32,000 nt of DNA from Nitrospira sp. (lineage in GTDB: Bacteria; Nitrospirota; Nitrospiria; Nitrospirales; Nitrospiraceae), in assembly GCA_965247795.1 (NCBI GenBank), contig OZ252033.1, positions 786,486 to 818,485 of the forward strand. Reading direction: 5' to 3'. Below, one piece after another: positions 1 to 19,320 of this stretch. The notes under the pieces were generated by a model, which saw nothing but the letters and a program-made list of their open reading frames with translations, was not told where the DNA came from and did not search any database. The position numbers and the translations under genes were made by a program. Within the stretch, counting starts at the first letter, position 1. Each line of letters starts with the position of its first letter.

Positions 1-1474
1 GCCGATGCTCTACATGGGATATGTCGGATTCTCTGTGGCCTTCGCGTTTGCCATTGCCGCGCTGCTGGGGGGCAATCTCGATGCCGCCTGGGCACGCTGG
101 TCTCGCCCGTGGACGACCGTGGCCTGGTGTTTTCTGACGGTCGGAATCGCGCTGGGGAGTGGCTGGGCCTATTACGAACTGGGTTGGGGAGGGTGGTGGT
201 TCTGGGATCCGGTCGAAAACGCGTCGTTCATGCCCTGGTTGGCCGGAACCGCGTTGATTCACTCGCTCGCCGTGACCGATAAGCGGGGCGGCTTTAAAGT
301 CTGGACCGTCTTGCTCGCAATCCTGGCGTTTTCGTTGAGCCTGCTCGGGACGTTTCTCGTGCGCTCCGGTATCTTGACCTCTGTCCATGCGTTTGCCACT
401 GACCCGAAGCGTGGCTTGTTCATCCTCGTGTTCCTGGCCGTGGTGATTGGAGGTGCGCTGATCTTGTACGCGTGGCGCGCACCGCGCGTGGGACTGGGCG
501 GCGGGTTTTCCCTCCTGTCACGCGAGGCGATGCTGCTGGCCAACAATGTGTTACTGCTCGCGGCTATGGGGGCGGTGTTGTTGGGCACGCTGTATCCCTT
601 GTTCCTGGATGCGCTGGGCCTCGGGAAAATCTCTGTCGGTCCACCCTATTTTGACGCCGTCTTTGCCCCTCTGATGACACCGGCCGTCTTTTTGATGGGG
701 ATCGGGCCTCTTGCGCAGTGGAAGAAAGCAAACCTGCCGGCATTGGCATTGCGACTGCGCTGGGCATGCGGAGTCAGCATCGTGACCGCCCTCGCGCTGC
801 CGTTTGTCCTGGGCAAGTGGACGCCATTGATCAGCCTGGGGCTCCTGCTGGCAATCTGGATTGTGACGACGGCCGCGATTAACCTGCGTGAACGGCTGGC
901 CCATGTTGACGGCAGCAGCCTCGTGGGCCGCCTGGCCGCGGTACCACGATCGTATTGGGGCATGCTCCTGGCCCACTGCGGAGTTGCCGTGTTCATCGTC
1001 GGCGTGACCATGGTGAAGGGCTTCGAATCGGAGAAAGACGTACGGATGAACGTCGGAGAGACGACGACCATCGGCGGCTATACTTTCCGATTCGACGGCG
1101 CGCAAGATGTCACAGGGCCGAACTATACGGCATCGCGCGGGACGTTTCGTGTGAGTCAGGATGGCCATGACACGACCGTGCTGTATCCGGAAAAGCGCCG
1201 CTATACTGTCCAGAATCAGATCATGACCGAAGCCGCGATCGATTCTGGATTGCTGCGCGACCTGTATGTGGCGTTGGGTGAACCGCTCGACGATGGCGCC
1301 TGGAGTGTGCGGCTCTACCACAAGCCTTTTGTCAATTGGATCTGGGGTGGATGTTTGCTCATGGCGTTAGGCGGCGTGCTGGCCATTACCGATCGCCGCT
1401 ACCGACTCGCGTGGCGCCGTGAAGAGCTGAATGTGCCGGCGGCGACACAGACGGTTGAGCGGACGGTCACATGA
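1..1474 (+). CDS. ccmF: Cytochrome c-type biogenesis heme lyase subunit CcmF, C-terminal ~490 aa (5' end lies outside the window)
   Basis: The reading frame is open to the window edge. It contains the heme-handling WWD signature WGGWWFWDPVENASFMPW and many TM segments. Its stop overlaps the next start (ATGA at 1471-1474). Confidence 0.95.
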   Translation, partial: PMLYMGYVGFSVAFAFAIAALLGGNLDAAWARWSRPWTTVAWCFLTVGIALGSGWAYYELGWGGWWFWDPVENASFMPWLAGTALIHSLAVTDKRGGFKVWTVLLAILAFSLSLLGTFLVRSGILTSVHAFATDPKRGLFILVFLAVVIGGALILYAWRAPRVGLGGGFSLLSREAMLLANNVLLLAAMGAVLLGTLYPLFLDALGLGKISVGPPYFDAVFAPLMTPAVFLMGIGPLAQWKKANLPALALRLRWACGVSIVTALALPFVLGKWTPLISLGLLLAIWIVTTAAINLRERLAHVDGSSLVGRLAAVPRSYWGMLLAHCGVAVFIVGVTMVKGFESEKDVRMNVGETTTIGGYTFRFDGAQDVTGPNYTASRGTFRVSQDGHDTTVLYPEKRRYTVQNQIMTEAAIDSGLLRDLYVALGEPLDDGAWSVRLYHKPFVNWIWGGCLLMALGGVLAITDRRYRLAWRREELNVPAATQTVERTVT

Positions 1475-1998
1475 AACGGTTTCTCCTCCCGTTTGCGATC
1501 TTTGCAGTCGTGGTCGGCTTTCTGACAGTCGGGCTGACGCTCGACCCGCGTGAAGTGCCGTCTCCCTTGGTGGGGAAGTCGGCGCCAGATTTTTCCCTGC
1601 CGCAGCTCCATGATCAGGAGAAAGTATTTTCGCCGAACGAGCTGACGGGTAAGGTTTGGCTGCTCAACTTCTGGGCTTCTTGGTGCGGTGGCTGCAAGGT
1701 CGAGCACCCGGTCCTCATGCAGCTCGCACACTCCGGGGAGGTGCCCATCTATGGCCTGGACTACAAGGATCGAAGGGAAGAAGCGCTGGCGTGGTTGAGA
1801 CAGCGGGGCAATCCCTATCCGCTGACAGCCGTGGATGAAGCAGGGCGCGTGGGCATCAACTATGGAGTCTACGGCGTGCCCGAAACTTACGTGATCGACA
1901 AGCAGGGGGTCATTCGCTACAAGCAAATCGGGCCGTTGGACGAGGACATCGTGAACGGGAAGATCTTGCCCCTTGTCAGGGAGTTGCAGAACCAATGA
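1471..1998 (+). CDS. ccmG: Thiol:disulfide interchange protein CcmG/DsbE (periplasmic thioredoxin for apocytochrome c)
   Basis: N-terminal TM anchor and a thioredoxin fold with WASWCGGCKVEHP (CxxC). ATGA overlaps with ccmF and ccmH. Confidence 0.93.
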   Translation: MKRFLLPFAIFAVVVGFLTVGLTLDPREVPSPLVGKSAPDFSLPQLHDQEKVFSPNELTGKVWLLNFWASWCGGCKVEHPVLMQLAHSGEVPIYGLDYKDRREEALAWLRQRGNPYPLTAVDEAGRVGINYGVYGVPETYVIDKQGVIRYKQIGPLDEDIVNGKILPLVRELQNQ

Positions 1999-2456
1999 GA
2001 TGGCTCTCAGTGATAATCCTTCTCCTCCCATGCCTTGCTGCGGCGGAAGAGGCCAGGCCGCTCGCCGACAATCCGCAGGTCGAAACGCGTTTGAAACACC
2101 TGGCCGTCGAGCTCCGTTGTTTGGTCTGTCAGAACCAAACGTTGGCCGATTCGGACGCGCCGCTCGCGGAAGACTTGCGCCGAGAAATTCGCGAGATGAT
2201 CGCCAAGGATATGAGCGACCAGGACATTATCGACTTTCTCGTTGCGCGCTATGGAGATTTCGTGTTGTATCGACCCCCCTTGAAGGCCACGACCGCGCTG
2301 CTCTGGCTGGGGCCGTTTCTCTTGCTGATCGCAGGCGCAACGACGTTGGTGTTTGTGCTGCGCAGGAGACAGAAGAAGCTTGCTGACGTGGCATTGTCGG
2401 AAGAGGAGCACATCCGTGTCGCGCAGATGCTCTCCGAAGGAGCCAAGAACCCATGA
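1995..2456 (+). CDS. ccmH: Cytochrome c-type biogenesis protein CcmH
   Basis: Signal peptide, LRCLVCQNQTLADSDAPLA (LRCxxC motif) and a C-terminal TM helix. ATGA overlaps on both sides. Confidence 0.93.
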   Translation: MRWLSVIILLLPCLAAAEEARPLADNPQVETRLKHLAVELRCLVCQNQTLADSDAPLAEDLRREIREMIAKDMSDQDIIDFLVARYGDFVLYRPPLKATTALLWLGPFLLLIAGATTLVFVLRRRQKKLADVALSEEEHIRVAQMLSEGAKNP

Positions 2457-4114
2457 CGCTCATGTTCTGGCTCATCGCCTCGGCCATGACCGTTCTCGTC
2501 CTCGGTCTCCTGTTGTGGCCGTTGTTGAAGCGCACTGCCGCCGCAACGGGAGAGCAGGAGAAGACGCTGTCGGTCTACCGACAGCAGTTCGCGGAATTGG
2601 AGCAGGACCGGACAAACGGCCTGCTCACCGACGAACAGTATAAGCTGTCGCGACATGAGCTGGAGCGCCGTCTGCTGGAAGAAACGGGCGCCACGGAGAC
2701 GATGCCCACACAGGCATGGCGACAGGTGAACAGCAGGCTGGTAGCTCTTGCGCTTGCCATGATCATCCCGACTGCCAGTGGGGTGCTCTATTGGACACTA
2801 GGGAATCCGCTCGCCATGACGCATCCAACTGCGCCCTCGACGTTCTCCCAAGGAAGTTCTGAGGACGCTCTTCAGGGCTCTGGTGGACTCGCGGTGGTGG
2901 TTGAGCAACTGAAGAAGAAGCTTGAACAGAATCCCAGTGACGGCGTGGGGTGGGTCTTGCTTGCGCGCTCCTATATGGCAATGGGGCGTCATGCCGATGC
3001 CGTGCCGATCTACGAGAAAGCCGTGAAACTGAATCCTGATAATGCGCAGTTACTTGTGGACTATGCCGATGCGCTCGGTATCCACCAGGGTCGCAAGCTG
3101 GAAGGCAAGCCCGACGGCTTGATTCAACGGGCACTGAAGATCGATCCACACAATGTGAAGGCGCTGATGTTGGCCGGGACCGTGTCCTTCAACCGAAAGA
3201 ATTACGCGCGCGCGGCCAAGGACTGGGAACAGGCTCGCGCGAACCTTCCTGCGGACGCAGAGCCGGAAGCGGCGCAGGAACTGACGGCTAGCATTGCAGA
3301 AGCCCAGCGCCGACTTGATGGCAGCCCAACGATGATGACCGCGAATGCGGCACTGGCGGCGCCGGCCAAGCCGACCGGGCAGATTGGATCGTCGCGTGCG
3401 ATCAGCGGCACGGTGACGCTGGCGCCGAGCCTGGCTGGCAAAGGATCTTCGACGGACACGTTGTTCGTGTTTGCACGCGCGGTCAATGGCCCACCGATGC
3501 CTGTGGCCATCGTGCGTGCGACGAAGAACGATTTACCCTTCACGTTCCGGCTCGATGACTCGACCAGCCCGATGCCGTCCAGAAAACTCTCCGACGTAGG
3601 CACGGTGGTGATTGTGGCCCGTCTGTCGAAGTCCGGCAGAGCCATGCCGGAAAGTGGAGATCTGGAGGGGATGAGTCAGCCAGTGAAGCCTGGAGTGGAG
3701 GGGATCACTATCGTTATTGATCGTGAACGACCGTCGGCGCCAGCCAAGCCGACCCAGCAGATTGGATCGTCGCGTGCGATCAGCGGCACGGTGACGCTGA
3801 CGCCGAGCCTGGCCGGCAAAGGATCTTCGACGGACACGTTGTTCGTGTTTGCGCGTGCGGTCAATGGCCCACCGATGCCTGTGGCCATCGTGCGCGCGAC
3901 GAAGAACGATTTACCCTTCACGTTCCGGCTCGATGACTCGACCAGCCCGATGCCGTCCAGAAAACTCTCCGACGTAGGCACGGTGGTGATTGTGGCCCGT
4001 CTGTCGAAGTCCGGCAGAGCCATGCCGGAAAGTGGAGATCTGGAGGGGATGAGTCAGCCAGTGAAGCCTGGAGTGGAGGGGATCACCGTCGTCATTGATC
4101 GTGAACGACCGTAA
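2453..4114 (+). CDS. ccmI: Cytochrome c-type biogenesis protein CcmI/CycH with a duplicated C-terminal domain
   Basis: N-terminal TM helices with a charged loop, then a TPR-like segment (ARSYMAMGRHADAVPIYEKAVKLNPDNAQLLVDYADAL...). A CycH-type C-terminal domain (ISGTVTL.PSLAGKGSSTDTLFVFARAVNGPPMPVAIVR...) follows and is present twice in tandem. Confidence 0.9.
   Translation: MTLMFWLIASAMTVLVLGLLLWPLLKRTAAATGEQEKTLSVYRQQFAELEQDRTNGLLTDEQYKLSRHELERRLLEETGATETMPTQAWRQVNSRLVALALAMIIPTASGVLYWTLGNPLAMTHPTAPSTFSQGSSEDALQGSGGLAVVVEQLKKKLEQNPSDGVGWVLLARSYMAMGRHADAVPIYEKAVKLNPDNAQLLVDYADALGIHQGRKLEGKPDGLIQRALKIDPHNVKALMLAGTVSFNRKNYARAAKDWEQARANLPADAEPEAAQELTASIAEAQRRLDGSPTMMTANAALAAPAKPTGQIGSSRAISGTVTLAPSLAGKGSSTDTLFVFARAVNGPPMPVAIVRATKNDLPFTFRLDDSTSPMPSRKLSDVGTVVIVARLSKSGRAMPESGDLEGMSQPVKPGVEGITIVIDRERPSAPAKPTQQIGSSRAISGTVTLTPSLAGKGSSTDTLFVFARAVNGPPMPVAIVRATKNDLPFTFRLDDSTSPMPSRKLSDVGTVVIVARLSKSGRAMPESGDLEGMSQPVKPGVEGITVVIDRERP
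3359..4111 (+). repeat. In-frame tandem duplication inside ccmI: copy 1 3359-3736, copy 2 3737-4111 (period 378 bp)
   Basis: My codon-by-codon alignment found 11 nucleotide differences over 375 aligned nt. Seven codons differ synonymously and three carry replacements (G->Q, A->T, I->V). Confidence 0.98.
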
Positions 4115-4129
4115 CGCTGGGAAGCCCAC

Positions 4130-4936
4130 AGGTCTCTCTCTCTTCTTTCACACCACGCTGCTCGACCTCCTGCCGCTGATCCTTGCCCTGGTCCCGTATT
4201 CCCGTCGCCACAGCAAGAAGGAAACCCACCGCCGCGCTCGCCTGGTCGAGACCGTCAAGTCGGGGCTCGCAACGCCCCTGACGCTCCATCCGGTCATGAA
4301 CACCAACACGTGAATCGGATCGAGCGCCTGTGTCGGACCCTGTCCGAAACACGCGATTGGGATCGTGAGAGGCACAGCACGGTTCTGGTGGAGCTGGACC
4401 ACGGCATCGGCCTCAGCGCCTGCGAGGCGGCGTGCCCAATCGAAGCGATCCAGCCAGTGTTCGGGACGGAGCCGTGTGGGATCGATCTCCCATTCGTCAC
4501 ACCCCGACCTGTGCGACCCACCATGTCCGACCTCTTCATCGTCGGCGAGTTGGGTGGGATGGGGCTGATTCACAAAGGAGTCGAGCAAGGAGCGCGGGCG
4601 ATCGCGTCCATCTACAAAAACACAGAGAGTGCCAATGAGCAGGATGGTGTGATCGTTGGCGCCGACCCAGCCGGCAGCTCTCCATCCCCACCGGCCAGCT
4701 AAGGAGCATGGTTGGCGATTCGTGACGGTCGAACAGGACGACTCACTCGGCGGCTCGCTCTACCACGACCCGCATCGGAAACCGGCCATGACGGTCATAG
4801 CATGTCGGAGCATCCCACGGCGATCGCGTATCCCACGGTGACCGTGGAGCCGGCTGCGGGTGGTCTGGCTGAGGACGCCCTGGGAAAACAAGAACTTGTG
4901 GCCCTCATGCGGTTCTACGCCGAGACCTATCATTGA
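4130..4936 (+). pseudogene. Decayed remnant of a membrane-anchored 4Fe-4S ferredoxin-domain / FAD-NAD(P) oxidoreductase
   Basis: Similarity is scattered over three frames. The pieces are a TM/charged N-terminus (LLPLILALVPYSRRHSKKE...SGLATPLTLHPV), a ferredoxin-like ACEAACPIEAIQPVFGTE with upstream Cys ligands lost, DLFIVGELGGMGLIHKGVEQGARAI, a degenerate dinucleotide-binding DGVIVGADPAG, then VTVEQDDSLGGSLYHDPHRK. Several frameshifts and stops are present and the total length is far too short for the family. Confidence 0.45.
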
Positions 4937-5021
4937 ATCATGGCACATGACTTGCTTCAGTTATTTTAAGTAGTACAATTTAAGCAGTATAGCTAGGTCC
5001 ATAATTCCACTTAAATTTCAA

Positions 5022-5050
5022 TTGACAGCTGATAAACGCTACTATATATT
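5022..5050 (+). promoter_or_regulatory. Sigma70-type promoter candidate for the hao-cyc operon
   Basis: TTGACA (5022-5027), a 17-nt spacer and TATATT (5045-5050) sit in an AT-rich island ~50 nt upstream of the haoA ATG. A GGGGGAGGG Shine-Dalgarno precedes the ATG at 5098. Confidence 0.5.
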
Positions 5051-5097
5051 TCCGCGCGAATGAAGCAACGTGCGCATATTACGGGGGAGGGCATGCT

Positions 5098-6825
5098 ATG
5101 AAAATGAGGCTGGGGCTTGGAATGGTAATAGCCTTCTGCGGATCACTATACGCCTCGACCGTGCAAGCGGACTTCCCCACGATCCCCAAGGAACTCTACA
5201 AGGCGCTCAACATCGAGCGGTCAGCTACGCCCAAGGAATTGTACGAGGCGGTGGTGAAACGATACCTGGATCCGGAGCAAGGCTTTGGGAAAGGGCAGTA
5301 CGCCGAGTTCTGGGAGCCAATCCCCTACAGCCAGTACCTTGACCCTGGGTCCTTCTACAAGCCGCCGCAGTCGGTTAAAGAGATCTCGACACGCGAAGAG
5401 TGCGTCGAGTGCCATACCGACGAGTCGCCCGGTTGGGTAATCGCGTGGAAGCAGAGCTCCCATGCCAATCTGCAGAAGATCCGCAACCTCACCCCGCGTG
5501 ATGACATCTATTACAAGAAAGCAAAGCTGGAGGCGATCGAGGAGAACCTGCGCTCGATGGGCAAACTCGGCAAGAATGAGAAATTGCAGGAAGTCAGCTG
5601 CATCGATTGCCACTTCTCCATCAATACCAAGAAGAAGGCCGACCACCGGAAAGACCTGCGCATGGGCACCGCCGATGTGTGCGGCACCTGTCACCTGCAG
5701 GAGTTTGCTGAACGGGAGTCCGAACGGGACACCCTCACCTGGCCGGCTGACCAGTGGCCCAAGGGCCGCCCGTCGCACGCGCTGGACTACAGGGCCAACG
5801 TCGAGGTGCAGGTGTATGCAGGGATGCCGGAACGCGAGATCGCCGAAGGCTGCACCGGGTGCCACATCAATCAGAACAAGTGCGACACCTGCCACGTTAG
5901 GCACGCATTCTCGGCGGCCGAGTCGCGTAAGTCTGAGGCCTGCGGGACCTGCCACAACGGGGCCGACCACAACAATTGGACAGCCTACAGCTTCTCACGG
6001 CACGGAATGAACTATCAGGCGGAGAAAGCAAATTGGAATTTTAACGTGCAACTCAAGGACGCTCTCGACAAGGGCGGGCAGACCTCGCCCAGCTGCCAGA
6101 CCTGTCACTTTGAGTACAATGGCAAGTTCGGCTCGCACAACCTGGTGCAAAAGGTGCGCTGGGCGAACTACCCCTTCGTGCCCGGCATCCGGGAAAACAT
6201 CTCCAGCGAGTGGTCCGAGCAGCGCCTGGATATGTGGGTCAAGACCTGCACCAATTGCCACTCCGAGACGTACGCCCGCGCCTGGCTGGACTGGATGGAC
6301 AAGGGCACCTTCGCGATGCTTGATAAATACGATGAGGTGCATAAGATAGTGAAGAAGCAGTTTGATGATGGCCTGCTCACAGGCCAGAAGACCAACCGCC
6401 CGAAGCCTCCGGCCCCGATCAAAGACGGGTTCGAGCAGTTCTTCCAGATCTTCTGGTCAAAGGACAACAACCCGGCTTCGATCGAGCTCAAGCTCTTTGA
6501 AATGGCTGAGGATCATATGGTGATGGGGCATGTGAGCCTCGCCCACGTCTACTGGGGTGGGTTTACCTACACCCAAGGCTGGGGGCCGATGAATCGAGCC
6601 TATGTCGAGATCATGGACGAGACCACGAAGCTCAAGGAGACGATGGCGCTGCAAGCACGGGTCGCCAAGCTCGAGCAGGGCCCCATGAGCAGCATGCTCG
6701 ACCTCATGAGCAGCCTTGACAGCACGGGTGCGAAGCTTTCGCTCGGAGGCTTGGGCGTCGGGATGCTACTGACCGGCACGCTCACGCTCGCCGGGTGGCG
6801 GAAGCGCAAAAGGAACGCTCGTTGA
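5098..6825 (+). CDS. haoA: Hydroxylamine dehydrogenase/oxidoreductase, octaheme subunit HaoA
   Basis: Signal peptide plus eight CxxCH motifs (CVECH, CIDCH, CGTCH, CTGCH, CDTCH, CGTCH, CQTCH, CTNCH). It is colinear with my recollection of Nitrosomonas europaea HAO, including [19 protein letters not shown] (cross-linking Tyr position) and the C-terminal hydrophobic tail + WRKRK. Confidence 0.97.
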
Positions 6826-6875
6826 TCTCCTCTCCTGTCCCTGAGCGCCATGGTGTGCGTTCCTGAACGGCCACC

Positions 6876-7889
6876 GTGGCGACTCGACTGGGAATTAAAC
6901 TCCTCCCGTCACTAGGAATCGTTCTGGTGACGGGAGGAGTTTTTGTGCTCGGCTGGATCGCGTACCTGTGGCTCCTCCCCGTGCCGGCACCCTACCGCTA
7001 CCATCTCGTCGAGAAGGGCGGGGTCGGCAAGTTCGCCCAACTTGGGCTGGAAGCATGGCCGGGTCTCACCATAGGTCAGTACGAAGTACGCGTGGACTCT
7101 GTGGACAAGCCCATCGCCGTGGTCTATCGCGCGACCCGCGACGACGCCCCACCCGTCTTGCTCAACTGGGAGAGCGGCGTCAGCGAACCGTTAGGGTTCA
7201 TCGGGAGCAAACTATCCGAGTTGACCACGGTGGCGACGGCGATTGCCAAGCATACGCCAACAGATGCCGTCGTCCTCGCATGGTGGGACACCTCACGCCA
7301 AGTGCAACTGCTCGCCGACCGCGACACGGTGTTCACATCCCACCTCAGGCAGCCGATGATGGTGCCTTCCTACTGGACCGGACGGAGCGCTGCCATCGAC
7401 ACGTACGAGCGCGAGTTCTGGGGCGCCCCGGCGCCGTTCGAAGAGCGTCGGCACTTCGAGCGCTTCGTCGACGCGCTGGCGGCGGATCCGAACGAAGGCG
7501 TGGTGATGCTGCGCGAGTTGGCCGGCCCGCGCGAGGCGTATCTGGTGGTCCATGTCACCGATATCTATAAACTGGGACTGATGCGCCCGGAGCGCCTCGA
7601 CCTCGCCTTCAAAAATTTCCCGATACCCAGCGACGTGCACGGGCTGGCCCAGCACGTGAAGGCCTGGATGACAAACAACAACTACGACACGTACACGCTC
7701 CAATCGCTCTCCGAGGCGTCGGTACGCGGCTATTTCCTCCGCGAGGTCAAAAGCGGCTACCCACTGCTCGCGCAGTTGCTGCCCTTCACGGACTGGGCGC
7801 CTCTTGACCTGGAAGCGGTGCAGCTCATCTACCAGCACGGCGGCTATTGGGTGTACAAGCTCACTCCTGCAGAGCCGTCCGGTGTCTGA
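6876..7889 (+). CDS. haoB: HaoB (orf2 of hao clusters), membrane-anchored periplasmic protein
   Basis: GTG start at 6876, the only start after an in-frame stop at 6864. It has an N-terminal TM helix and occupies the conserved position between haoA and cycA. The call rests mainly on synteny. Confidence 0.8.
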   Translation: MATRLGIKLLPSLGIVLVTGGVFVLGWIAYLWLLPVPAPYRYHLVEKGGVGKFAQLGLEAWPGLTIGQYEVRVDSVDKPIAVVYRATRDDAPPVLLNWESGVSEPLGFIGSKLSELTTVATAIAKHTPTDAVVLAWWDTSRQVQLLADRDTVFTSHLRQPMMVPSYWTGRSAAIDTYEREFWGAPAPFEERRHFERFVDALAADPNEGVVMLRELAGPREAYLVVHVTDIYKLGLMRPERLDLAFKNFPIPSDVHGLAQHVKAWMTNNNYDTYTLQSLSEASVRGYFLREVKSGYPLLAQLLPFTDWAPLDLEAVQLIYQHGGYWVYKLTPAEPSGV

Positions 7890-8046
7890 TGGCTTCAGCA
7901 GCCGCAGTGGTCCAAGGGCGCGGGGGGTGTTATTCTGTGTAGCAAAGTGTCGCAAAACGATGATACCATATGGCTATAAGCCATGGTGAGAGTCCAACCA
8001 CGACGAGAGTTGTGTGAAATGTTGGTGTGATGAAAGGAGCTATCTC

Positions 8047-8757
8047 GTGAATCATCCCATGATGCACGTACTCGCCGCTGCTGCGGTGTTCGTGATTCTG
8101 GCCGGAAGCGCGACCGCCGAGCCGATGTTCGAAGGGAAGAAGAAATGCTATAATTGCCACAAGAGTCAGGGCAAATCCTGGGACAAAACTGCCCACGCCA
8201 AGGCCGTCAACTCGCTCAAGCCCGAGGCTCGGGAGAAAGCCAAGCTCAAGGCCAAGCTCGACCCCAAGAAGGACTACACCGAGGACAAGGATTGTATCGG
8301 CTGTCACGTGACCGGATTCGGGGAGGAAGGCGGGTATATCGTTCAGGACCCGGACAAATTTCTGAGGGGCGTAGGCTGCGAATCCTGCCACGGGGCGGGC
8401 AGCGACTATCGAAAAATTCACCGCAAGAAGGGTGAGCGCTTTGAAAAGGCGAAAGAGACGGCGTCGCGCGAGTCTCTCGCGGAGGTCGGGGAAGACTTCG
8501 AGTTCATCGAGGCGTGCAACGCCTGCCACCTGAACTACGAGGGGTCGGGATGGAAGGGCACGAAGAAACCGTATACCCCGTTCACCCCCGAGGTAGACAA
8601 GAAGTATGTGTTCGACTTCGACAAGTCCGTACAGGACAGCGAGGCCATGCATGAGCATTTCAAACTAGAGGGCACGTTCACTGGCCCGCCTGTCTTTAAA
8701 TTCCATAAGGAATTTCAAGCCAAGGCCAAGCCGCTCCCAGCCGACGAGGAGGAGTGA
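8047..8757 (+). CDS. cycA: Tetraheme cytochrome c554
   Basis: Four heme motifs (CYNCH, CIGCH, CESCH, CNACH). It aligns closely to my recollection of N. europaea c554 (PFEG.KKC..CHK.Q..SW..TAHAKA, MHEH.KLEG.F.G.P.FKFH.EFQA.AKP). The start is set at GTG 8047, 7 nt after AAAGGAG; ATG 8059/8062 or the ORF-track start 8014 are alternatives. Confidence 0.95.
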   Translation: MNHPMMHVLAAAAVFVILAGSATAEPMFEGKKKCYNCHKSQGKSWDKTAHAKAVNSLKPEAREKAKLKAKLDPKKDYTEDKDCIGCHVTGFGEEGGYIVQDPDKFLRGVGCESCHGAGSDYRKIHRKKGERFEKAKETASRESLAEVGEDFEFIEACNACHLNYEGSGWKGTKKPYTPFTPEVDKKYVFDFDKSVQDSEAMHEHFKLEGTFTGPPVFKFHKEFQAKAKPLPADEEE

Positions 8758-9350
8758 TGGCCGGGCGGTTACGGCGCTACCTGAGCGTGTCGGGCGGCAC
8801 CCTGCTCATCGGCGCAGGGCTTGCGGTCGTGTCGATCGTTGTGATCTTCGGCGGCGAGGCCGCCCTGTCCACGACCACGTTCTGCGTGAGTTGCCATTCC
8901 CAGACCTACCCGTATGAGGAGCTGAAAAAATCCTCGCACTACGGTGCGCTCGGTTCCGATCCGGGCTGCAAGGACTGCCACATCCCCCAGGGCTTGAGAA
9001 ACTTCCATCAGGCGTTGTGGGCGCACTTCTACGACGGACCACAGGAACTGTTCGCGGAGATCATCCACGACTACTCGACGATCGAGAAATTCAACGAGCG
9101 TCGGCTGGGGATGGCCTACTACGCGCGCATGAACATGAAGAAGGAGGACAGCGTTACCTGCCGGGACTGCCACCAGAATACCAGGCCTCCCGGGAAGTCC
9201 GCTAAGGCCGCGCACAAGAAGATGGAAACGGAGGGCGCGACGTGTATCGATTGCCATCAGAACCTGGTGCATAAGAAAGTCCCCGAGATGGATCTCACTG
9301 CCAGTCTGGCGCAGGGCATCATGGTGATGAAGGAGGAAGACGAAGATTGA
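8754..9350 (+). CDS. cycB: Tetraheme membrane-anchored cytochrome cM552 (NapC/NirT family quinone reductase)
   Basis: N-terminal TM helix and four heme motifs (CVSCH, CKDCH, CRDCH, CIDCH). Strong similarity to my recollection of N. europaea CycB (GGEAALST..FC.SCHS..YP..ELK.S.HYGALG..PGCKDCHIPQG). The start is GTG 8754 or ATG 8757, overlapping the cycA stop, and the C-terminal tail is acidic. Confidence 0.95.
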   Translation: MMAGRLRRYLSVSGGTLLIGAGLAVVSIVVIFGGEAALSTTTFCVSCHSQTYPYEELKKSSHYGALGSDPGCKDCHIPQGLRNFHQALWAHFYDGPQELFAEIIHDYSTIEKFNERRLGMAYYARMNMKKEDSVTCRDCHQNTRPPGKSAKAAHKKMETEGATCIDCHQNLVHKKVPEMDLTASLAQGIMVMKEEDED

Positions 9351-9697: not shown

Positions 9698-10420
9698 TCA
9701 CCCACCAGCCCCCTGTAGCCTCGCGGAGGTACTGGCTGTCGTCCCGGTGGCCGCCCGCCGTCCTAAGCGCTCCCGCCATCTGACCGAAAGGGCCGGACAG
9801 GCGGCAAGCGCACGCGCTGCCTCCACGTCGTGCGTGCGGTGGTGCATCACGTCGTTCGCGGCGGCCACAGTCCACTCGGGGTGCGGCCGCTTGGTCAACA
9901 GCAGTTTCGCTCCCGCCTGGACGTGGCCCTGTCGCAGTACTCGAAAATACCAGCCCGTGCGGCCGCTTTGCTGGACCCTGAGGGCCAAGTCCTTCATCCG
10001 CCACCGCCGTGCCAGCTTCCAGCATGGCTGTCGGGGCTGGGACAGTTGGACTAGCGCGTGGCTGATCTCGAACACATCGCCGATGCATACATCAGCCTCC
10101 AGCAGCCCCTCGGTGGTGAAGTTCTCACCGAATGCTCCGCAGGGCAGGGCTGCCAGGCCAAGATTTCGCTCCCAATACGGGTAGTGCTCGGCCGGGTAGA
10201 CGTTCACCGCCTTCTCAGGCCCCCCGTGGTTCTGCAGGTCGGCTTGGCTGTCCCCGGCGAGATTGACGCGCCCTAGTCGAACCGAGCCGGCAACCGGCTC
10301 TTTGAAGAAGCCGGTTGTCCAGATCTGATCCATCGGATCGGTTGTGTCAGCCCGCCCGACTGTCCGTGGGACCCCGATCTGCACCGAGAGGAGTTCGGCT
10401 TCGACTACGACCTCACCCAC
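9698..10420 (-). CDS. MOSC domain-containing protein (YiiM-like)
   Basis: YiiM/MOSC-type pattern: GD.QADL..HGG..KAV..YP.EHY..W, GENFT..GL.E..VCIGD, L.QLSQPRQPCWKLARRW, SGRTGWYFRVL..G.V. The start is set at GTG 10420, 6 nt after AGGAGG; the ORF-track start 10444 is less likely. Confidence 0.85.
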   Translation of the reverse strand: MGEVVVEAELLSVQIGVPRTVGRADTTDPMDQIWTTGFFKEPVAGSVRLGRVNLAGDSQADLQNHGGPEKAVNVYPAEHYPYWERNLGLAALPCGAFGENFTTEGLLEADVCIGDVFEISHALVQLSQPRQPCWKLARRWRMKDLALRVQQSGRTGWYFRVLRQGHVQAGAKLLLTKRPHPEWTVAAANDVMHHRTHDVEAARALAACPALSVRWRERLGRRAATGTTASTSARLQGAGG

Positions 10421-13060: not shown

Positions 13061-14329
13061 TCAAACTCCCCCCTTCGTAAAGGTCGGGATCACGGCAGCG
13101 TAAATCGGGTTAATGAAGCGCTCACCAGACTCGTTCCAACTCATCAGCAACCCTCCCATGCGCTGATCAGGATCGTGAAGGATGTCCACGAGACGCTGCA
13201 CTTCCCACAGCACGTCCTTCGACTCGAGCTTGATCACTCTGGTTTCACCGGGCATGATCGCGTCCTCGTTGTCCAGCGTCAAGCCCTCTGCTGCCACGAG
13301 CTCCTCCGGGTAGTCTGGGTCGCTTTTGGTTTGACCGAACTTGTTGAGGAACCTGATCCCTGCCGTCGTGAACTCTCCGATAGTCGCGGGTTCCTCACCG
13401 TTGTTGGTGACGGTGAAATCAATGCGCAGCGCGCGACCCGGCACATCATACTCCGCGTGATTCACCTCAACCGTGAGAGGGTTCGGCGCGATCGGCAGCG
13501 GTACGATCTTGGCTTCGCCGGCCTGGAGAGGAACGGTAATCGGGTGATTGGCTTCCGCCCCGAAGTACCCAATCGCGACCAACGCAAGGACTACTACCAT
13601 CAGAATTGACCCCACTTTGCGGTCGATCGGGTCAAGCAACAATGCGTCCCCTTGTGCCGCCAGCACCCGGGCGCGAATGAGGAACATCGGTCTGACCGCG
13701 AAGAAACCTATCCAGAAGAGCGCGAGGGCAATATATATAGCGTGCCACCACAACCCGGTGCTCGTGCCCACGACCTCCGAATCGTACGTTTCTCCCGTCA
13801 GCGTTTCGATCGGGTTGGTAAAATCCCTGTCTCGGCCCGTGATATCCATCCAACCCCCCGGCCCGGCGACCGGCCCGGCCTCCTTGATGGACAACATCGG
13901 GTGGATGTGGTGATGCCCAGTTAACCGAGCCTTCAACGTGACTTCATACTCGTAGTCCCGACCGATGTCCAGCGGGCCTGAGAGGAACATCGGCTGCCCG
14001 TTCATGAACGAGCTGAGACGCACGAACACCGAACTCGGGGAGCCCACGTTTAGGAACGAACGGGTAGGTTTGACGACGGCCCTCGGCCAGTCTTCCGCCA
14101 AGTGAAACTTGCCCTTCAGCGTCGCGATCCCATTGATGGGGGTCGACCGACCGTTCTCCCCTAACCACTGTGTGTCATACCAATTCACAGTCCGCATCCG
14201 CAGGAACGGTTCCTGGGATCGCTCCCCGTGGGCTGCAGCGGGAATGGGCTCGACTGTCAAGGTGAGCGCCAGGGTCACCATCCCGCAGAACCCGATCATG
14301 CACAATTTGACTACGTTTTTGGCGTTCAT
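13061..14329 (-). CDS. amoB: Ammonia monooxygenase subunit B
   Basis: Signal peptide ending AAA|[19 protein letters not shown] (the N-terminal His of the Cu site) and the HHHIHP (HxH) motif. Two C-terminal-half TM helices separate the cupredoxin-like domains. The start overlaps the amoA stop (ATGA, 14326-14329). Confidence 0.97.
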
Positions 14330-15171
14330 ACTTTCCCCTCTACAGTTTGAACCTTCTCGCCACGTGCTATATCGCCGTACGCGAACACATCAGACACCTT
14401 CGACGTTCGGTTCCTGGCGTCTGTGAGGTAAAAGTGCGCGGTGCAGAAGAACTTCCCGAACTGCCACCACAGGATGTACATCAGCGAGGAGGCGAAGGCC
14501 GCGAAGAACGCGGAGATCATGGTGCTGTGCCCGCCGAATGTGCGAAGCGATCCCACCTCGATCATCCGTATATACTCAGGCGTCCCGGTCCGGACATATA
14601 GGAAGCCCATGTAGTCGGCCCACGAGAGCAGCGTCCCATCAACGACGACCGGAGTCTTGCTGTACGCGAAGAGGGCCCAGTTGGTCGGGTAAAACAGCGC
14701 TGCGAACAGCCATGCCCCGGCCACCGCCGTGATCACCCAGCTCCGGGTCAGCAACAGGATTATGTCGAGGCATATCGCGCTGGGGAGCAGGGTGGCGGGC
14801 ATGACGAAGTTGAACGGATAGTGGGCCCACCACCACCAGGCGAAAGTAACCGTGATCCACTTTCCGGTGAGGAGCGCCAGGATCGTCATCGTCGCGCCAA
14901 ACGGTTGTCGATAGTTCACCCAGAGGTAGTACTGGAGGGCGGCGCAAAAGGTGATTGCCGTGACGGGTGTCACCACCACCCACCACTGCCGGTCCTTCCA
15001 ATCGAGCCAGAAATCCCAGTCTCCCGCGAGCAGGTCGAAGTGCATGTGAAAAGTCCCGATTGTGGTGACAAATAAGATCGGGAGGAAATAGATATAGTCG
15101 ATATGTCGGGACATTCTGACGCCTTCCGGCGGCAGGTTGGCAGCTTTCACAATCGCGTCGGTTCTAAACAT
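14326..15171 (-). CDS. amoA: Ammonia monooxygenase subunit A
   Basis: Colinear with my recollection of bacterial AmoA ([60 protein letters not shown]). GGGAGGAG Shine-Dalgarno upstream. Confidence 0.98.
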
Positions 15172-15208
15172 CTGTCTCCTCCCTTATTCCAGCCGGCTGG
15201 TTGGCCGA

Positions 15209-15237
15209 CCCCGCTCTCCGGCATTCGGAGAACGGGG
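15209..15237 (-). other. 12-bp stem-loop in the amoC-amoA intergenic region (transcript-level structure)
   Basis: On the - strand RNA it reads CCCCGUUCUCCG-AAUGC-CGGAGAGCGGGG (one G-U pair), starting 27 nt after the amoC stop. No U-tract follows. The palindrome ccagccggctgg and the amoA Shine-Dalgarno come next. Confidence 0.5.
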
Positions 15238-15263
15238 CTGACCATCCGATAGGCAACTACGTG

Positions 15264-16055
15264 TTAGAACGGTTTCAGAATGGCCTTGTTCGCGCCGTTC
15301 CAAATCACATCCGACAGGTTGGACATGCGGGAAACGATCTGCGCCGCAACCCCTCCGGCTGCGCCGAACAGGCCGCACCAGCCGAGCGTTACGAACCCCC
15401 AGTGTAACGGCGCGGCAAAGAGTTCATCCACGAACCAGAATGCATGACCCCACTCGTTGAGCCCCACATTGGGCAGAATAAACATCGGTCCCACGACCGC
15501 TGCCACCAAGGGAAACGAGGTTGCTTTGCCGTACAGCGGCAACCGGGTCTGTGCATACAGGTAACTCGAGACCCCGCAGGTGATGTACAACGGGAAGGTG
15601 CCGTAGAAGGCAACGATATGGCTGGCGGTGAAGCTCGTATCGCGGATGATCACCTGGTGCCACGACGCGTCCTGCTCCAGGGTATAGCTCCCGGCGTAGT
15701 ACACTCCCCAGATATAACACGCGAGCCACATCATCCAATAAAAATACCGCTTGAGCTCCAACTTTGGATCCAGGTTGGCGAGGTTACGATCCCGCGTCGT
15801 CCAGAGCCATCCTACGGCAATGGCAAAGAATGTGGCGTTAGCGAGGATGTTAAACCGCCACAGACCCATCCACACCGATTCGAATTCCGGTGTCATCGAG
15901 TCCAATCCGTACTCGTAGCCATACATGCGCTGATACCCGACCCAGAACACGCCAATTGCCAACATCGAGAACCAGCCCATCTTGAACTTTCTCGAATCGT
16001 ACCATAGCGACATGTCATACCCGGTGTCGCTGGATGTTTGAGGTGACGCAGCCAT
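15264..16055 (-). CDS. amoC: Ammonia monooxygenase subunit C
   Basis: Colinear with my recollection of N. europaea AmoC ([69 protein letters not shown]). GAAGGAGG Shine-Dalgarno upstream. Confidence 0.97.
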
Positions 16056-16420: not shown

Positions 16421-16452
16421 GCTCCCACATGACGCTGCTCCCACATGACGCT
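16421..16452. repeat. Perfect 16-bp tandem direct repeat (gctcccacatgacgct x2) ending within the copD stop codon
   Basis: Read directly from the sequence: 16421-16436 equals 16437-16452. The last repeat base is the first base of the tca (TGA) stop of copD. Confidence 0.95.
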
Positions 16453-18473
16453 CAGTGCACATGGTCGTCCGGCGGCGGCAGGATTTCCTTCTCCCGGTTG
16501 AGTTGATCGATCTGCCTCATCAATGCGCCGATGTCTGTCCATCCCGCCCCGTCCCCTGCAGGGATCCAGCGCGCCCGCAAATAGCCGTACCGGTCCACGA
16601 GGAACTCCATGTGTGGTGGGATTGTCCCCTCGCCGAACAGATCGGGATTGGCGAGGGTTCGACGGAACAAGGCGTAGCTGTGCGCGATCTTCGTCGCACC
16701 CTGCGTCACCACCGGGAAAGGCATGTCTGCCGTGATCGCCGCCATCTCCTGTGGGGTGGGGTCATGCACGGGCACCGCCAGTACCACCGTCTTGCCGCGA
16801 CTGATCGTGGTGTACGCCGCCCGCAACTGCTCGAGCCGCGCGCGCGACTCCGGCCACGAAAACAGGACCAGCAACACCGCAGTTTGTCGGCGGAAGTCCT
16901 CCAAGGTGCCGCTCGACCCGTCATGCGCGGAATAGGAGAAGTTCTGCGGGGCCATGTAGGGCTGATCGGGGACGACGCGGGGGCTGATAAGGCGTGCCTG
17001 GTAGCCGCGGGACGTGGCATGGAGAAAGTTCACGACATCCCAGCGATCCTCTTCCGAGAGTTTGTCGGCCCACGCCGGCATGCCTGTACCAGGAATACCG
17101 TGGGTCAACCAGTGGAAAAAATCGCCGACGGTATGCAAGGCGGTGTGCGGCTCCGTGAGCAGATCCACCGGTGGCTTCGCGAAGGTCTTGGCCAGAACGC
17201 CATTGCCCTTGGCTTGGGGTCCGTGGCAGGGGACGCAGTTCACGGCGTAGTGGGTGATCCCGTTGGCAATGGAAATGGCATCGAACGGGACCGGCGTGTT
17301 GCGATAGGTTTCCGGATACGCCTGAACGGCAAGGGCAGGCAGCGCCACGACGAGCGCACAGGTCGCCAGCGCGGCCGGGATGGCAATGCGCCACTTCGTC
17401 TTCCACCGCTTGGTCCAACCGAGGGCGACCGTTCCCCCTGCCAGAACGAGAACGACGATTCCGATCCACACGCGGATCATCACGCTCGGTATGCCCCACG
17501 TGGCGTCGATGGAGAAGCGGAATGGATAGGGCCAGTCCTGAATGACAGCATGCTTTGCCGGTACGGAGTTCGCCAGCAATGTCGCTGCCAACACCAGCGC
17601 GAACGCGAGAACGACTTCGACGGTGATCCACCGCCGAAGTCCTCGTCCGCCGGCCGCATCTCCAGCCCCGTTCAGGCCGAGTGTCGGCAGCCAGACGAAG
17701 CGCGCGCGCGCGGCGATCACGAGAATCACCGCGAGCAACGCAACCTTTGCATTGAGGAACCAGCCGTAGCTCGTCGCGACCAATGCGGCGTAGCTTGTGT
17801 CCACCATGCGATCCGCAACGATGAGGCCGGTTGCAACGACCGCGACCATTACGGGCAGCGCCATTGCCGAGAACTGCTTCAGGGTCTGGAGGTCGGACCG
17901 ATCCGCTTCCTCGCGTGATCGTTTCCCGGTGGCGGCGAACATCACGGTGAGGAAGGCCGGCAGCCCTCCGAACCAGACGCTCGCCAGAACGCGGTGCAGC
18001 GCGTGAGGCAGGACCGCTGTCAGGGACAGTTCTTCGGCTGCGGAATGGCTCGCGAACGATTCCACAGCCAACGTCAGTGCGGCGACCGACGCGCACAGCC
18101 CGTATCGCCAAGGCGCCCTAGGCGACGACCGAACGTAGAGGACCATCCCGCACACGACGAGTGCAAGGGTCGCGCGTACCGTCCAGATCAATCCTATGCG
18201 GGTCTGCTGTACAAGTTCTAGCCAGGCTCCCGGGCGCCACAAATTTTTGGCAACGCCCGTCGCCTCCGCCGTAGTCGTGGCAAGCAAGCCCAGCAACCCC
18301 AGCAGAAGCGGGACCGCTAGCCACGGCAACGCCCGTTCCAGGCGGGTGAGCCATGGGTTGTCGAAGGCGCCTCTCTCGCGCCCGGCAATCGCAAGAAAGA
18401 CGTAGCCGCCGATCAAGATCATGTTGGACGTAAGCTGTAACCAGCGGATCAGCGCGTCGATGACCTCGATCAT
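16452..18473 (-). CDS. copD: CopD-family copper-handling membrane protein fused to a mono-heme cytochrome c domain and a C-terminal thioredoxin-fold (AhpC/TSA/redoxin-like) domain
   Basis: About 10 TM helices in the first ~385 aa. The heme motif CVPCH (17223-17237) is followed by a GTGMPAW Met-ligand context. The C-terminal ~190 aa has a redoxin-like strand/helix pattern (VLLVLFSWPES...GKTVVLAVPV...PFPVVTQG...HMEFLVDRYGYLRARW) but no Cys where the active site would be. The start overlaps the copC stop (ATGA). Confidence 0.9.
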   Translation of the reverse strand: MIEVIDALIRWLQLTSNMILIGGYVFLAIAGRERGAFDNPWLTRLERALPWLAVPLLLGLLGLLATTTAEATGVAKNLWRPGAWLELVQQTRIGLIWTVRATLALVVCGMVLYVRSSPRAPWRYGLCASVAALTLAVESFASHSAAEELSLTAVLPHALHRVLASVWFGGLPAFLTVMFAATGKRSREEADRSDLQTLKQFSAMALPVMVAVVATGLIVADRMVDTSYAALVATSYGWFLNAKVALLAVILVIAARARFVWLPTLGLNGAGDAAGGRGLRRWITVEVVLAFALVLAATLLANSVPAKHAVIQDWPYPFRFSIDATWGIPSVMIRVWIGIVVLVLAGGTVALGWTKRWKTKWRIAIPAALATCALVVALPALAVQAYPETYRNTPVPFDAISIANGITHYAVNCVPCHGPQAKGNGVLAKTFAKPPVDLLTEPHTALHTVGDFFHWLTHGIPGTGMPAWADKLSEEDRWDVVNFLHATSRGYQARLISPRVVPDQPYMAPQNFSYSAHDGSSGTLEDFRRQTAVLLVLFSWPESRARLEQLRAAYTTISRGKTVVLAVPVHDPTPQEMAAITADMPFPVVTQGATKIAHSYALFRRTLANPDLFGEGTIPPHMEFLVDRYGYLRARWIPAGDGAGWTDIGALMRQIDQLNREKEILPPPDDHVH

Positions 18474-18874
18474 TTCTGTTGCACTTTGCCCTTCACCGTG
18501 AAATTGAAGGACGACTCCACCACGTGGCCGTCCACCGATAGCACCCGGAACGTCACGGAATACGTTCCGGACGCCAGGTTCGGCAACGGCAACACGATGG
18601 ATTTCTGGTCATCCGGAGCAAGGTGAAGCGTGACCTCGGTTACGGAATTCTTCTCGGCGTCGAGAACGACAAGCGAAGAGTAGGCGCCTTCAATCTCCTC
18701 GTTGAACCAGAGCCGTATCTGCGACGGCGCCTCGGTGAGGACAGCCCTGCGCGGCGGCTCCGCCTTGACCAGCAAGGCATGTGCCAGTGCCGGGGTGACC
18801 GGCACGCCCATCGCCATCGCCATCACCGCGCCCACTATGACGCGCTTGAGCACGTGAACCGCCAATGCATTCAT
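18470..18874 (-). CDS. copC: CopC periplasmic copper chaperone
   Basis: The start is set at ATG 18874, preceded by GGAGGAG; the 19078 start would add 68 non-signal residues. The signal peptide ends ALA|HALLVKAEP (mature N-terminal His typical of CopC), followed by an Ig-like beta pattern ...GTYSVTFRVLSVDGHVVESSFNFTV. Confidence 0.9.
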   Translation of the reverse strand: MNALAVHVLKRVIVGAVMAMAMGVPVTPALAHALLVKAEPPRRAVLTEAPSQIRLWFNEEIEGAYSSLVVLDAEKNSVTEVTLHLAPDDQKSIVLPLPNLASGTYSVTFRVLSVDGHVVESSFNFTVKGKVQQK

Positions 18875-19320
18875 CGTAACTCCTCCTCGTCCTTGACTAC
18901 TGCGTTCAAGCGCCACGTTGTCCATTTGACTGTCGAGGGCGATTACCTGGACACACGTTGGTCCCACATATGAGGGTTCGGGATGTGACGTAAGTGGTCG
19001 GGGGCCGTGGAAGACTACCCAAGCACCGCAGCGGAATTCACGCGCCGCGTCGCTCCTCAAACGATGGCTGTTCGGCATCCATCAGAGAGCGGTCAACCAG
19101 GAGCATCTGGACGGCGACCTCGACGGGATCGCGTGTCGGTTCGCCCGCCACCTTATCCATCCCAGCATCGTGACACGCTCTTTCATCGGATGGTGCCAAC
19201 GCCATGGCGGTCAATCCCGCTCCCTACTGAGTTGATTGTGAACCCTGTCCGTAGCCCAACCGAAAGAGATGGGGCGGACTTGAGTGCAGGGACTATCCCC
19301 GAATGACTGTCAGACTGCCC

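Follow-up and report, generated by a model that had tools for sequence, protein, structure and literature searches.

The window analysed here, a 32,000-nucleotide stretch of a Nitrospira sp. contig (OZ252033.1, positions 786,486 to 818,485), opens with a cytochrome c maturation cluster on the forward strand. Its first gene, ccmF (5–1474), is truncated at the 5' end by the edge of the window and is recognized by Pfam models CcmF_C (461 bits) and Cytochrom_C_asm; it is followed by a thioredoxin-like ccmG (1471–1998; Redoxin/AhpC-TSA) and by ccmH (1995–2456; CcmH, 176 bits). These three genes lie immediately upstream of ccmI (2453–4114), with overlapping stop and start codons. Farther along the same strand are haoA, encoding an octaheme hydroxylamine oxidoreductase (5098–6825; Pfam Multi-haem_cyto, 448 bits), haoB (6876–7889; NCBIfam TIGR04392, 374 bits), and cycA and cycB, encoding cytochrome c554 and the NapC/NirT-type cM552 (8014–9350; Pfam Cytochrome_C554 and Cytochrom_NNT). 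The amoCAB genes (Pfam AmoC, AMO and Monooxygenase_B) occupy positions 13061–16055 of the reverse strand, and copCD are also present with them in that more distant part. Because amoCAB occur together with hao, and because every relative bearing an organism name is a Nitrospira, the window is the ammonia-oxidation island of a comammox-type Nitrospira.

The ccmI and haoA genes are separated by a spacer (4115–4935, forward strand) that three-frame translations show to be the frame-broken relic of a 4Fe-4S ferredoxin/FAD-oxidoreductase gene. The window's own open reading frames in this spacer gave no Pfam match, and it was the counterpart in the related locus L016 that matched Fer4 and NAD_binding_8. 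The decayed spacer is common to the window, L016 and another relative, L084, both of which have a single-copy ccmI. The signal peptide of the HaoA in the window is unrelated to those of L016 and of clade B.

The ccmI gene of the window encodes 553 amino acids, compared with about 420–430 in its relatives that carry one Ig domain. NCBIfam TIGR03142 (CcmI) matches amino acids 4–119, the N-terminal CcmI membrane domain, with 101.2 bits against a cut-off of 29.3. Pfam recognizes one TPR_CcmH_CycH domain (PF23914; 81.9 bits, cut-off 42) and two Ig_CycH domains (PF23892), the latter with a total of 228 bits from two stretches, the better of which covers positions 2–108 of the 108-position model. The periplasmic TPR domain (amino acids 144–288, nucleotides 2882–3316, forward strand) also matches the structure of NrfG (PDB 2e2e) with E = 1.6e-11. 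The NrfG equivalog model NF007692, however, scores 49.9 bits, far under its cut-off of 306, and the protein is therefore CcmI and not NrfG. Since the TIGR03142 and Pfam matches agree with the position of the gene, directly downstream of ccmFGH and upstream of haoAB and the genes that follow, it is the ccmI of a hao-linked ccm cluster of the System I type.

An AlphaFold2 (AF2) model of the whole protein begins with long helices at the N terminus, which lead into the helices of the TPR domain (pLDDT >90). Beyond these, the model shows two separate seven-strand beta-sandwiches (amino acids 317–425 and 443–551, pLDDT 73–89), preceded by linkers predicted to be disordered (amino acids 291–314, with pLDDT <50, and 428–440; the inter-domain linkers have pLDDT <50). 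A single unit modelled by itself reached a pLDDT of 87.6 and a pTM of 0.82. Thus, in the predicted structure, the CcmI described here is a membrane-anchored TPR protein with two independent Ig_CycH sandwiches on flexible linkers. A sequence search of the PDB with CcmI matched only the TPR part; none of the solved structures covers Ig_CycH, and a Foldseek search of the PDB with the Ig domain returned only distant beta-sandwiches, namely the T2SS pilotin 5wec (TM around 0.5) and transthyretin. Two motifs, LPFxFxLDDS and SKSGxAxPxxGDLxGxS, are kept between the Ig domains of proteins that are only about 40% identical overall, and with these conserved motifs the module may be regarded as a putative periplasmic interaction surface.

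The two Ig_CycH domains are encoded by a tandem repeat at the 3' end of ccmI. Tandem Repeats Finder reported a sole array, at positions 3357–4112, with a period of 378, 2.0 copies, 97% matches, no indels and a score of 1435; the entire array is contained in the single open reading frame 2453–4114. Copy 1 (3357–3734, forward strand) encodes a linker and the first Ig_CycH domain, and copy 2 (3735–4112, forward strand) a linker and the second, the last base of copy 2 being the T of the stop codon TAA. Each unit thus encodes the linker sequence APAKPT.QIGSSRAISG plus one complete domain, and the unit that was duplicated is a linker plus sandwich module. Base-by-base comparison at an offset of 378 found 11 mismatches in 378 positions (97.1% identity), located in copy 1 at 3364, 3377, 3378, 3422, 3436, 3475, 3478, 3517, 3709, 3710 and 3715. 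They affect 10 codons, of which seven differ synonymously and three by replacement (G->Q, A->T and I->V). A repeat of this length at 97% identity is far beyond chance. The sequence-only reading had proposed that 378 bp were duplicated in tandem and in frame, giving CcmI a second C-terminal domain, and the repeat finder, the direct comparison and the two Pfam Ig_CycH matches bear this out; its tally of nucleotide and codon differences was reproduced exactly, while the limits that it gave for the copies (3359–3736 and 3737–4111) have to be moved two bases leftward.

The breakpoints could be placed by a three-way junction print-out and by alignment with the single-copy genes of L084 and L016. Copy 1 ends in ...CGACCG T and continues as CG GCG CCA, and copy 2 ends in ...CGACCG TAA. 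In the junction codon, TCG (Ser, 3734–3736, forward strand), the T therefore stems from the former stop codon, and the CG from GCG, a codon of the linker. Because the junction lies inside the stop codon, the duplication removed the stop codon of copy 1 and preserved the frame. The event would have copied the last 378 bp of ccmI, comprising the flexible linker and the entire Ig_CycH sandwich, in tandem and in frame; with the right breakpoint within the stop codon, translation would read through into the second copy, and the product would be a membrane anchor and a TPR domain followed by two near-identical Ig modules on disordered linkers.

A microhomology-mediated origin was considered and set aside, the actual junction being without microhomology. 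The single-copy relatives carry an imperfect direct repeat, GCGCCGG..AAGCC, at the start of the linker and just past the stop codon; by our own count on the printed sequence, recombination at this repeat would give an out-of-frame unit of 376–377 nt that retains the stop codon, and this route was likewise rejected.

Synonymous differences predominate between the copies. The method of Nei and Gojobori gave seven synonymous base changes for 99 sites and four non-synonymous ones for 276, and hence a dN/dS of 0.20 (Fisher p = 0.0095), a value that comes from eleven changes and so has little power. None of the three replacements falls at any of the 18 invariant positions in an alignment of 108 domain sequences. 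This pattern fits purifying selection acting on both copies, albeit with low power, and agrees with the excess of silent changes that had been pointed out from the sequence alone. A modular layout of this kind may tolerate additional copies, which purifying selection would then retain.

The closest relative found is L084, whose CcmI (P0143, 427 amino acids) has one copy of the unit and which is colinear with the window on either side of it. Positions 1–3361 of L084 align with 377–3734 of the window at 92.6% nucleotide identity, and positions 2979–6986 with 3730–7762 at 84.3%, and the single unit of L084 aligns to both copies in the window. From the colinear flanks and the single unit that matches both copies, it follows that the window has the L084 arrangement plus 378 bp. 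L016 and L017 are likewise single-copy in their layout and share the spacer. When the N-terminal 302 amino acids were used as the query, all relatives at 78–87% identity were 419–433 amino acids long with one Ig domain, although near-identical tandem repeats can collapse in short-read assemblies, so that some of these apparently single-copy relatives may be under-counted.

Each copy is closest to the other: they share 97.1% identity, compared with 91.5–93.1% to the single-copy outgroups L084 and L016. The synonymous divergence between them (0.074) is about half of that between the window and L016 (0.13–0.14). Polarization with L084 and L016 assigned six derived bases to copy 2, four to copy 1 and left one ambiguous; since derived changes are found in both, both copies evolved after the event. 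We therefore agree with the sequence-only reading in calling the duplication recent, the nearest relatives being single-copy with colinear flanks: from these comparisons it appears to be specific to the lineage of the window and relatively young. Nine of the ten polarizable derived changes fall between -26 and +122 nt around the junction; this clustering gave p = 0.011 in a sign test conditioned on the sites, and p = 0.035 when adjacent bases were treated as single events, for a hypothesis formed post hoc.

That the repeat is an assembly artefact, produced for example by joining two strain variants of one Ig-coding segment in tandem, we consider extremely unlikely. It is true that the exact protein is recorded from one contig only, and that a degenerate pattern of the junction had no match in the metagenome contigs searched, so that the duplication has so far been seen in one genome only. 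However, that recorded contig is 3.07 Mb long, and the same architecture, near-identical copies included, is present in many independent assemblies on contigs of 0.1–2.9 Mb. An artefact would also have had to create a precise in-frame chimeric codon that abolishes a stop, and to distribute derived, mostly synonymous changes over both copies with respect to two outgroups. The sequence-only reading had argued from the non-identity of the copies that they are not artefactual, and the derived changes in both, together with the clean chimeric junction codon, do speak against a trivial artefact.

Duplicated Ig_CycH domains also occur in other Nitrospira. The 119 best full-length homologs of the protein (69–76% identity, all from Nitrospira metagenome bins) without exception have two or three Ig domains; those with two are 543–559 amino acids long, and one with three has 688. 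The genome loci of these multi-Ig homologs are clade-B-type comammox clusters, for example those of CG24A, RSF3 and RCB, and Palomo et al. (10.1101/138586) reported a 'duplication of CcmI' as a feature unique to comammox of clade B. Within clade B the copies are positional orthologs, first with first and second with second, with 78–90% DNA identity between positions, and the clade B duplication is therefore old. Younger events are superimposed on it: the copies in L015 are 97.9% identical, and L011 and L013 have triplications. Clusters formed at 90% identity contain members of 428, 558 and 688 amino acids together, a mixture of lengths that could reflect either true copy-number variation or repeats that collapsed when short reads were assembled.

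In clade B the repeated unit has 390 nt and a left breakpoint four codons farther upstream than the one in the window; its junction falls in a TAT codon, of which TA comes from the stop codon and the last T from TTT. Since unit length, junction codon and breakpoint all differ, the sequence comparison indicates that the duplication in the window is independent of the clade B event; a shared origin was rejected in view of the breakpoints, the unit lengths (378 versus 390) and the nearest-neighbour relations of the copies.

Concerted evolution would offer another account of the apparent youth of the repeat, in which an old duplication shared with clade-B-type Nitrospira has been homogenized by gene conversion. 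In the top homologs, the Ig domains within a protein are indeed always closer to each other (80–98% amino acid identity) than to the domain of the window (74–84%), and the near-identity of the L015 copies stands out in a clade where 78–90% is otherwise found. The copies in the window also share an identical run of 191 nt, which has P = 0.0046 under uniform rates. This run, however, is the most conserved part of the unit between orthologs as well (6 of 191 versus 20 of 187 positions differ from L016; Fisher p = 0.15), and partial gene conversion within the window repeat was rejected on the same ground, the run being also the slowest-evolving stretch between orthologs. Furthermore, the unit and junction codons are unlike those of clade B, the positional orthology of the clade B copies shows that conversion is not pervasive there, and all of the nearest relatives of the window are single-copy with colinear flanks. 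We hence regard an old, converted duplication as very unlikely. It is, by our assessment, quite probable that the repeat is real and arose fairly recently, in this lineage only, by an in-frame tandem duplication, an ordinary instance of an event that recurs in CcmI evolution.

Clade-B-type loci have a further small gene between ccmI and haoA, which consists of a Sec signal peptide and one Ig_CycH domain. At 78–79% identity, the first 54 nt of this gene and part of its leader match the beginning and the leader of the haoA that follows. The chimeric gene is therefore what formed at the junction when a tandem duplication copied the stretch reaching from the Ig part of ccmI into the signal-peptide part of haoA. 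Selection on the stand-alone gene is purifying (omega 0.09–0.22). A third Ig match and a small Ig open reading frame were sought in positions 4115–5097 of the window, and neither was found there.

The distribution of the module beyond Nitrospira was surveyed by searching the 126-amino-acid unit against 1.84 billion representative proteins, which returned 5051 matches, and by counting domains in the best 150 clusters (50% identity). Among these best 150, 57 have two or three Ig_CycH domains (51 with two, six with three), and their internal copies range from 32% to 98% identity. Pfam recognized a TPR domain with two or three Ig_CycH domains in 10 of the 10 such multi-Ig proteins that were checked. 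One of ten multi-Ig clusters looked up is named Usitatibacter, with relatives that include forms of 541–556 and of 410–418 amino acids, and one two-Ig ccmI is the first gene of a plain ccmIABCDEFGH operon that has no hao in its vicinity. CcmI homologs compared for one versus two domains thus turned out to include multi-Ig forms commonly, and the view that the doubled protein is unusual and without a described counterpart does not hold, given that forms with two or three domains are found in 119 of 119 top homologs as well as in those 57 clusters. On the sequence evidence, the architecture of TPR plus two or three Ig_CycH domains does not appear unusual, separate duplications with other breakpoints having apparently occurred in clade B and in unrelated bacteria. 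What is new here is an independent and young instance; the Pfam family and the multi-domain proteins were already in public data.

A further suggestion of the sequence-only reading was that, with its domain doubled, this chaperone of apocytochromes could be adapted to substrates very rich in heme, of which the octaheme HaoA is an example. The genomic setting gives this idea some appeal: in Nitrospira, each multi-Ig ccmI with visible context adjoins haoA; the stand-alone Ig gene of the clade-B-type loci, which is selectively maintained, encodes a secreted product and lies behind a duplicate of the leader and signal peptide of haoA; and the module has been amplified independently at least three times at this single gene boundary. 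But a single Ig domain is found in around thirty clade-A-type loci with the same ccmFGHI-haoAB-cycAB layout, and the closest relatives of the window are HAO-linked with a single Ig as well; the single-Ig CcmI of clade-A type matches that of Ca. N. nitrificans (429 amino acids). Conversely, two-Ig CcmI occurs without hao in the plain ccm operon, and it is also found in dozens of divergent clusters. Apocytochrome binding by CcmI and NrfG has moreover been assigned to the TPR domain, not to the C-terminal region (PMC3884852), and the Nitrospira cases derive from very few events, so that the association carries no statistical weight. Because a single Ig is the norm beside HAO, multi-Ig proteins exist without it, binding is assigned to the TPR domain and the Ig domain has no solved structure, we find the proposed adaptation unsupported and judge it highly improbable.

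A broader proposal is that selection acts on Ig_CycH copy number as a tunable trait of the maturation cluster linked to HAO in comammox Nitrospira, the module handling apo-HAO or another multiheme substrate and its dosage aiding maturation. The amplifications that can be cited for the ccmI-haoA boundary are the 378-bp duplication in the window, the 390-bp duplication of clade B, the further triplications, and the secreted Ig gene driven by the haoA leader. We think this proposal unlikely too. If the Ig module is an interaction surface, a second one would add another putative binding surface, and possibly greater reach or higher avidity in the CcmFHI complex.

As a single observation the duplication has small weight, being one more independent case of an architecture already held many times in public data. 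Its value is that of a dated natural experiment, in which one-Ig and two-Ig ccmI alleles occur in close relatives beside the same hao genes. Young copies that appear to be under purifying selection mark the linker plus sandwich as an evolutionary module, and could guide work on the C-terminal domain of CcmI. For comammox genomics, the ccmI-haoA boundary is repeat-rich, and short-read assemblies may miscount its copies.

Among characterized systems, the protein most resembles the CcmI/CycH of the CcmFHI complex in Rhodobacter capsulatus and Pseudomonas aeruginosa, which is known to bind apocytochrome c and to be required for holocytochrome formation (PMC3884852). In P. aeruginosa CcmI, a disordered linker leads from the TPR domain to an uncharacterized C-terminal alpha-beta region (PMC3884852). 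The N-terminal membrane anchor, periplasmic TPR domain, disordered linker and C-terminal region are shared, as is the location of the gene after ccmFGH, but the R. capsulatus and P. aeruginosa proteins have one C-terminal Ig_CycH module and the window protein has two. NrfG, the TPR subunit of the NrfEFG heme lyase, has a homologous TPR domain and offers a parallel in that a Ccm-type chaperone is encoded beside a specific multiheme substrate, although its match is limited to the TPR part of the window CcmI.

The two-Ig CcmI of Usitatibacter-like Betaproteobacteria (P0270 and P0432) have the same Pfam architecture, TPR_CcmH_CycH plus two Ig_CycH, and single- and double-Ig forms likewise occur side by side among close relatives. 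They differ from the window protein in being only around 40% identical to it, in having internal copies that are 73% identical, and in the absence of hao. The clade-B-type CcmI, such as that of Nitrospira sp. CG24A (688 amino acids, three Ig domains), differs in its older copies and longer unit, and its loci have the extra stand-alone Ig gene, which the window does not. Both nevertheless have the gene order ccmFGHI-hao, and in both the linker plus Ig_CycH unit is repeated in tandem and in frame, the stop codon being the site of the right breakpoint.

Nine of the 10 derived base changes between the two copies of the tandem duplication in the window's ccmI are located at 3709–3856, i.e. within −26 to +122 nucleotides of the junction (3734/3735), with almost no change in the outer half of either repeat copy. 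A sign test gave p = 0.011 for the changes (9/10) and p = 0.035 when they were counted as events (7/8), for a hypothesis framed post hoc. Such clustering may reflect error-prone synthesis at the breakpoint, the import of a patch by recombination or altered constraint at the new inter-domain linker.

Among homologous proteins, the 90% identity clusters of P0002 and P0022 bring together CcmI sequences of 428, 558 and 688 amino acids, corresponding to one, two and three Ig modules on near-identical backgrounds. Most of the 428-amino-acid forms are carried by short contigs. Either the copy number is genuinely polymorphic or short-read assemblers have collapsed the repeat.

The spacer between ccmI and haoA consists of a decayed gene for a 4Fe-4S dicluster/FAD-NAD(P) oxidoreductase, found at 4115–4935 in the window and, in two single-Ig close relatives, at 1182–1880 (L016) and 3364–4320 (L084). 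The L016 copy retains one open frame with Fer4 matches, and the copies in the window and L084 are interrupted by stops and frame shifts. Beyond the spacer, neither the signal peptide of the window's HaoA (5098–5170) nor the AT-rich region upstream of it bears any relation to the MTVKFWLRCGL... leader found in L016 (2436–2500) and clade B. The window's HaoA has only 65–72% identity to every compared genome-contig locus, whereas its ccmI has 81–87% identity to its nearest relatives. Taken together, these sequence comparisons hint at a history different from that of ccm, either for the 5′ end of hao only or for the entire hao cluster. Another single-Ig close relative, P0145 (84% identity), is encoded in a full ccmABCDEFGHI operon (locus L082), after which a nucleotidyltransferase/HepT toxin-antitoxin pair (9718–10403) takes the place of hao. 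Thus, linkage to hao is not universal in this ccmI lineage.

Elsewhere in the window, the 16-bp sequence GCTCCCACATGACGCT is perfectly repeated in tandem, its two copies (16421–16452) lying immediately downstream of a 673-amino-acid CopD-cytochrome c-thioredoxin-like fusion gene (16452–19078, minus strand) that adjoins copC.

In clade-B-type comammox loci, a small gene encoding a Sec signal peptide (pattern M.DKFWLRCGLLVCGVLLAA..AYA|EP) and one Ig_CycH domain is situated between ccmI and haoA. It was found at 7901–8353 in L003, at about 7514–7957 in L021 and at 5942–6406 in L085, as well as in L015, L020 and L037. Its first 54 nucleotides, and part of its leader as well, have 78–79% identity to the beginning and leader of the haoA gene that lies downstream, and because of this resemblance the small gene appears to have arisen at the junction of a tandem duplication extending from the Ig region of ccmI into the haoA signal peptide. 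Omega values of 0.09–0.22 indicate that it is under purifying selection. A 'CcmI duplication' has been reported in clade B by Palomo et al. (10.1101/138586), and it probably corresponds to this small gene.
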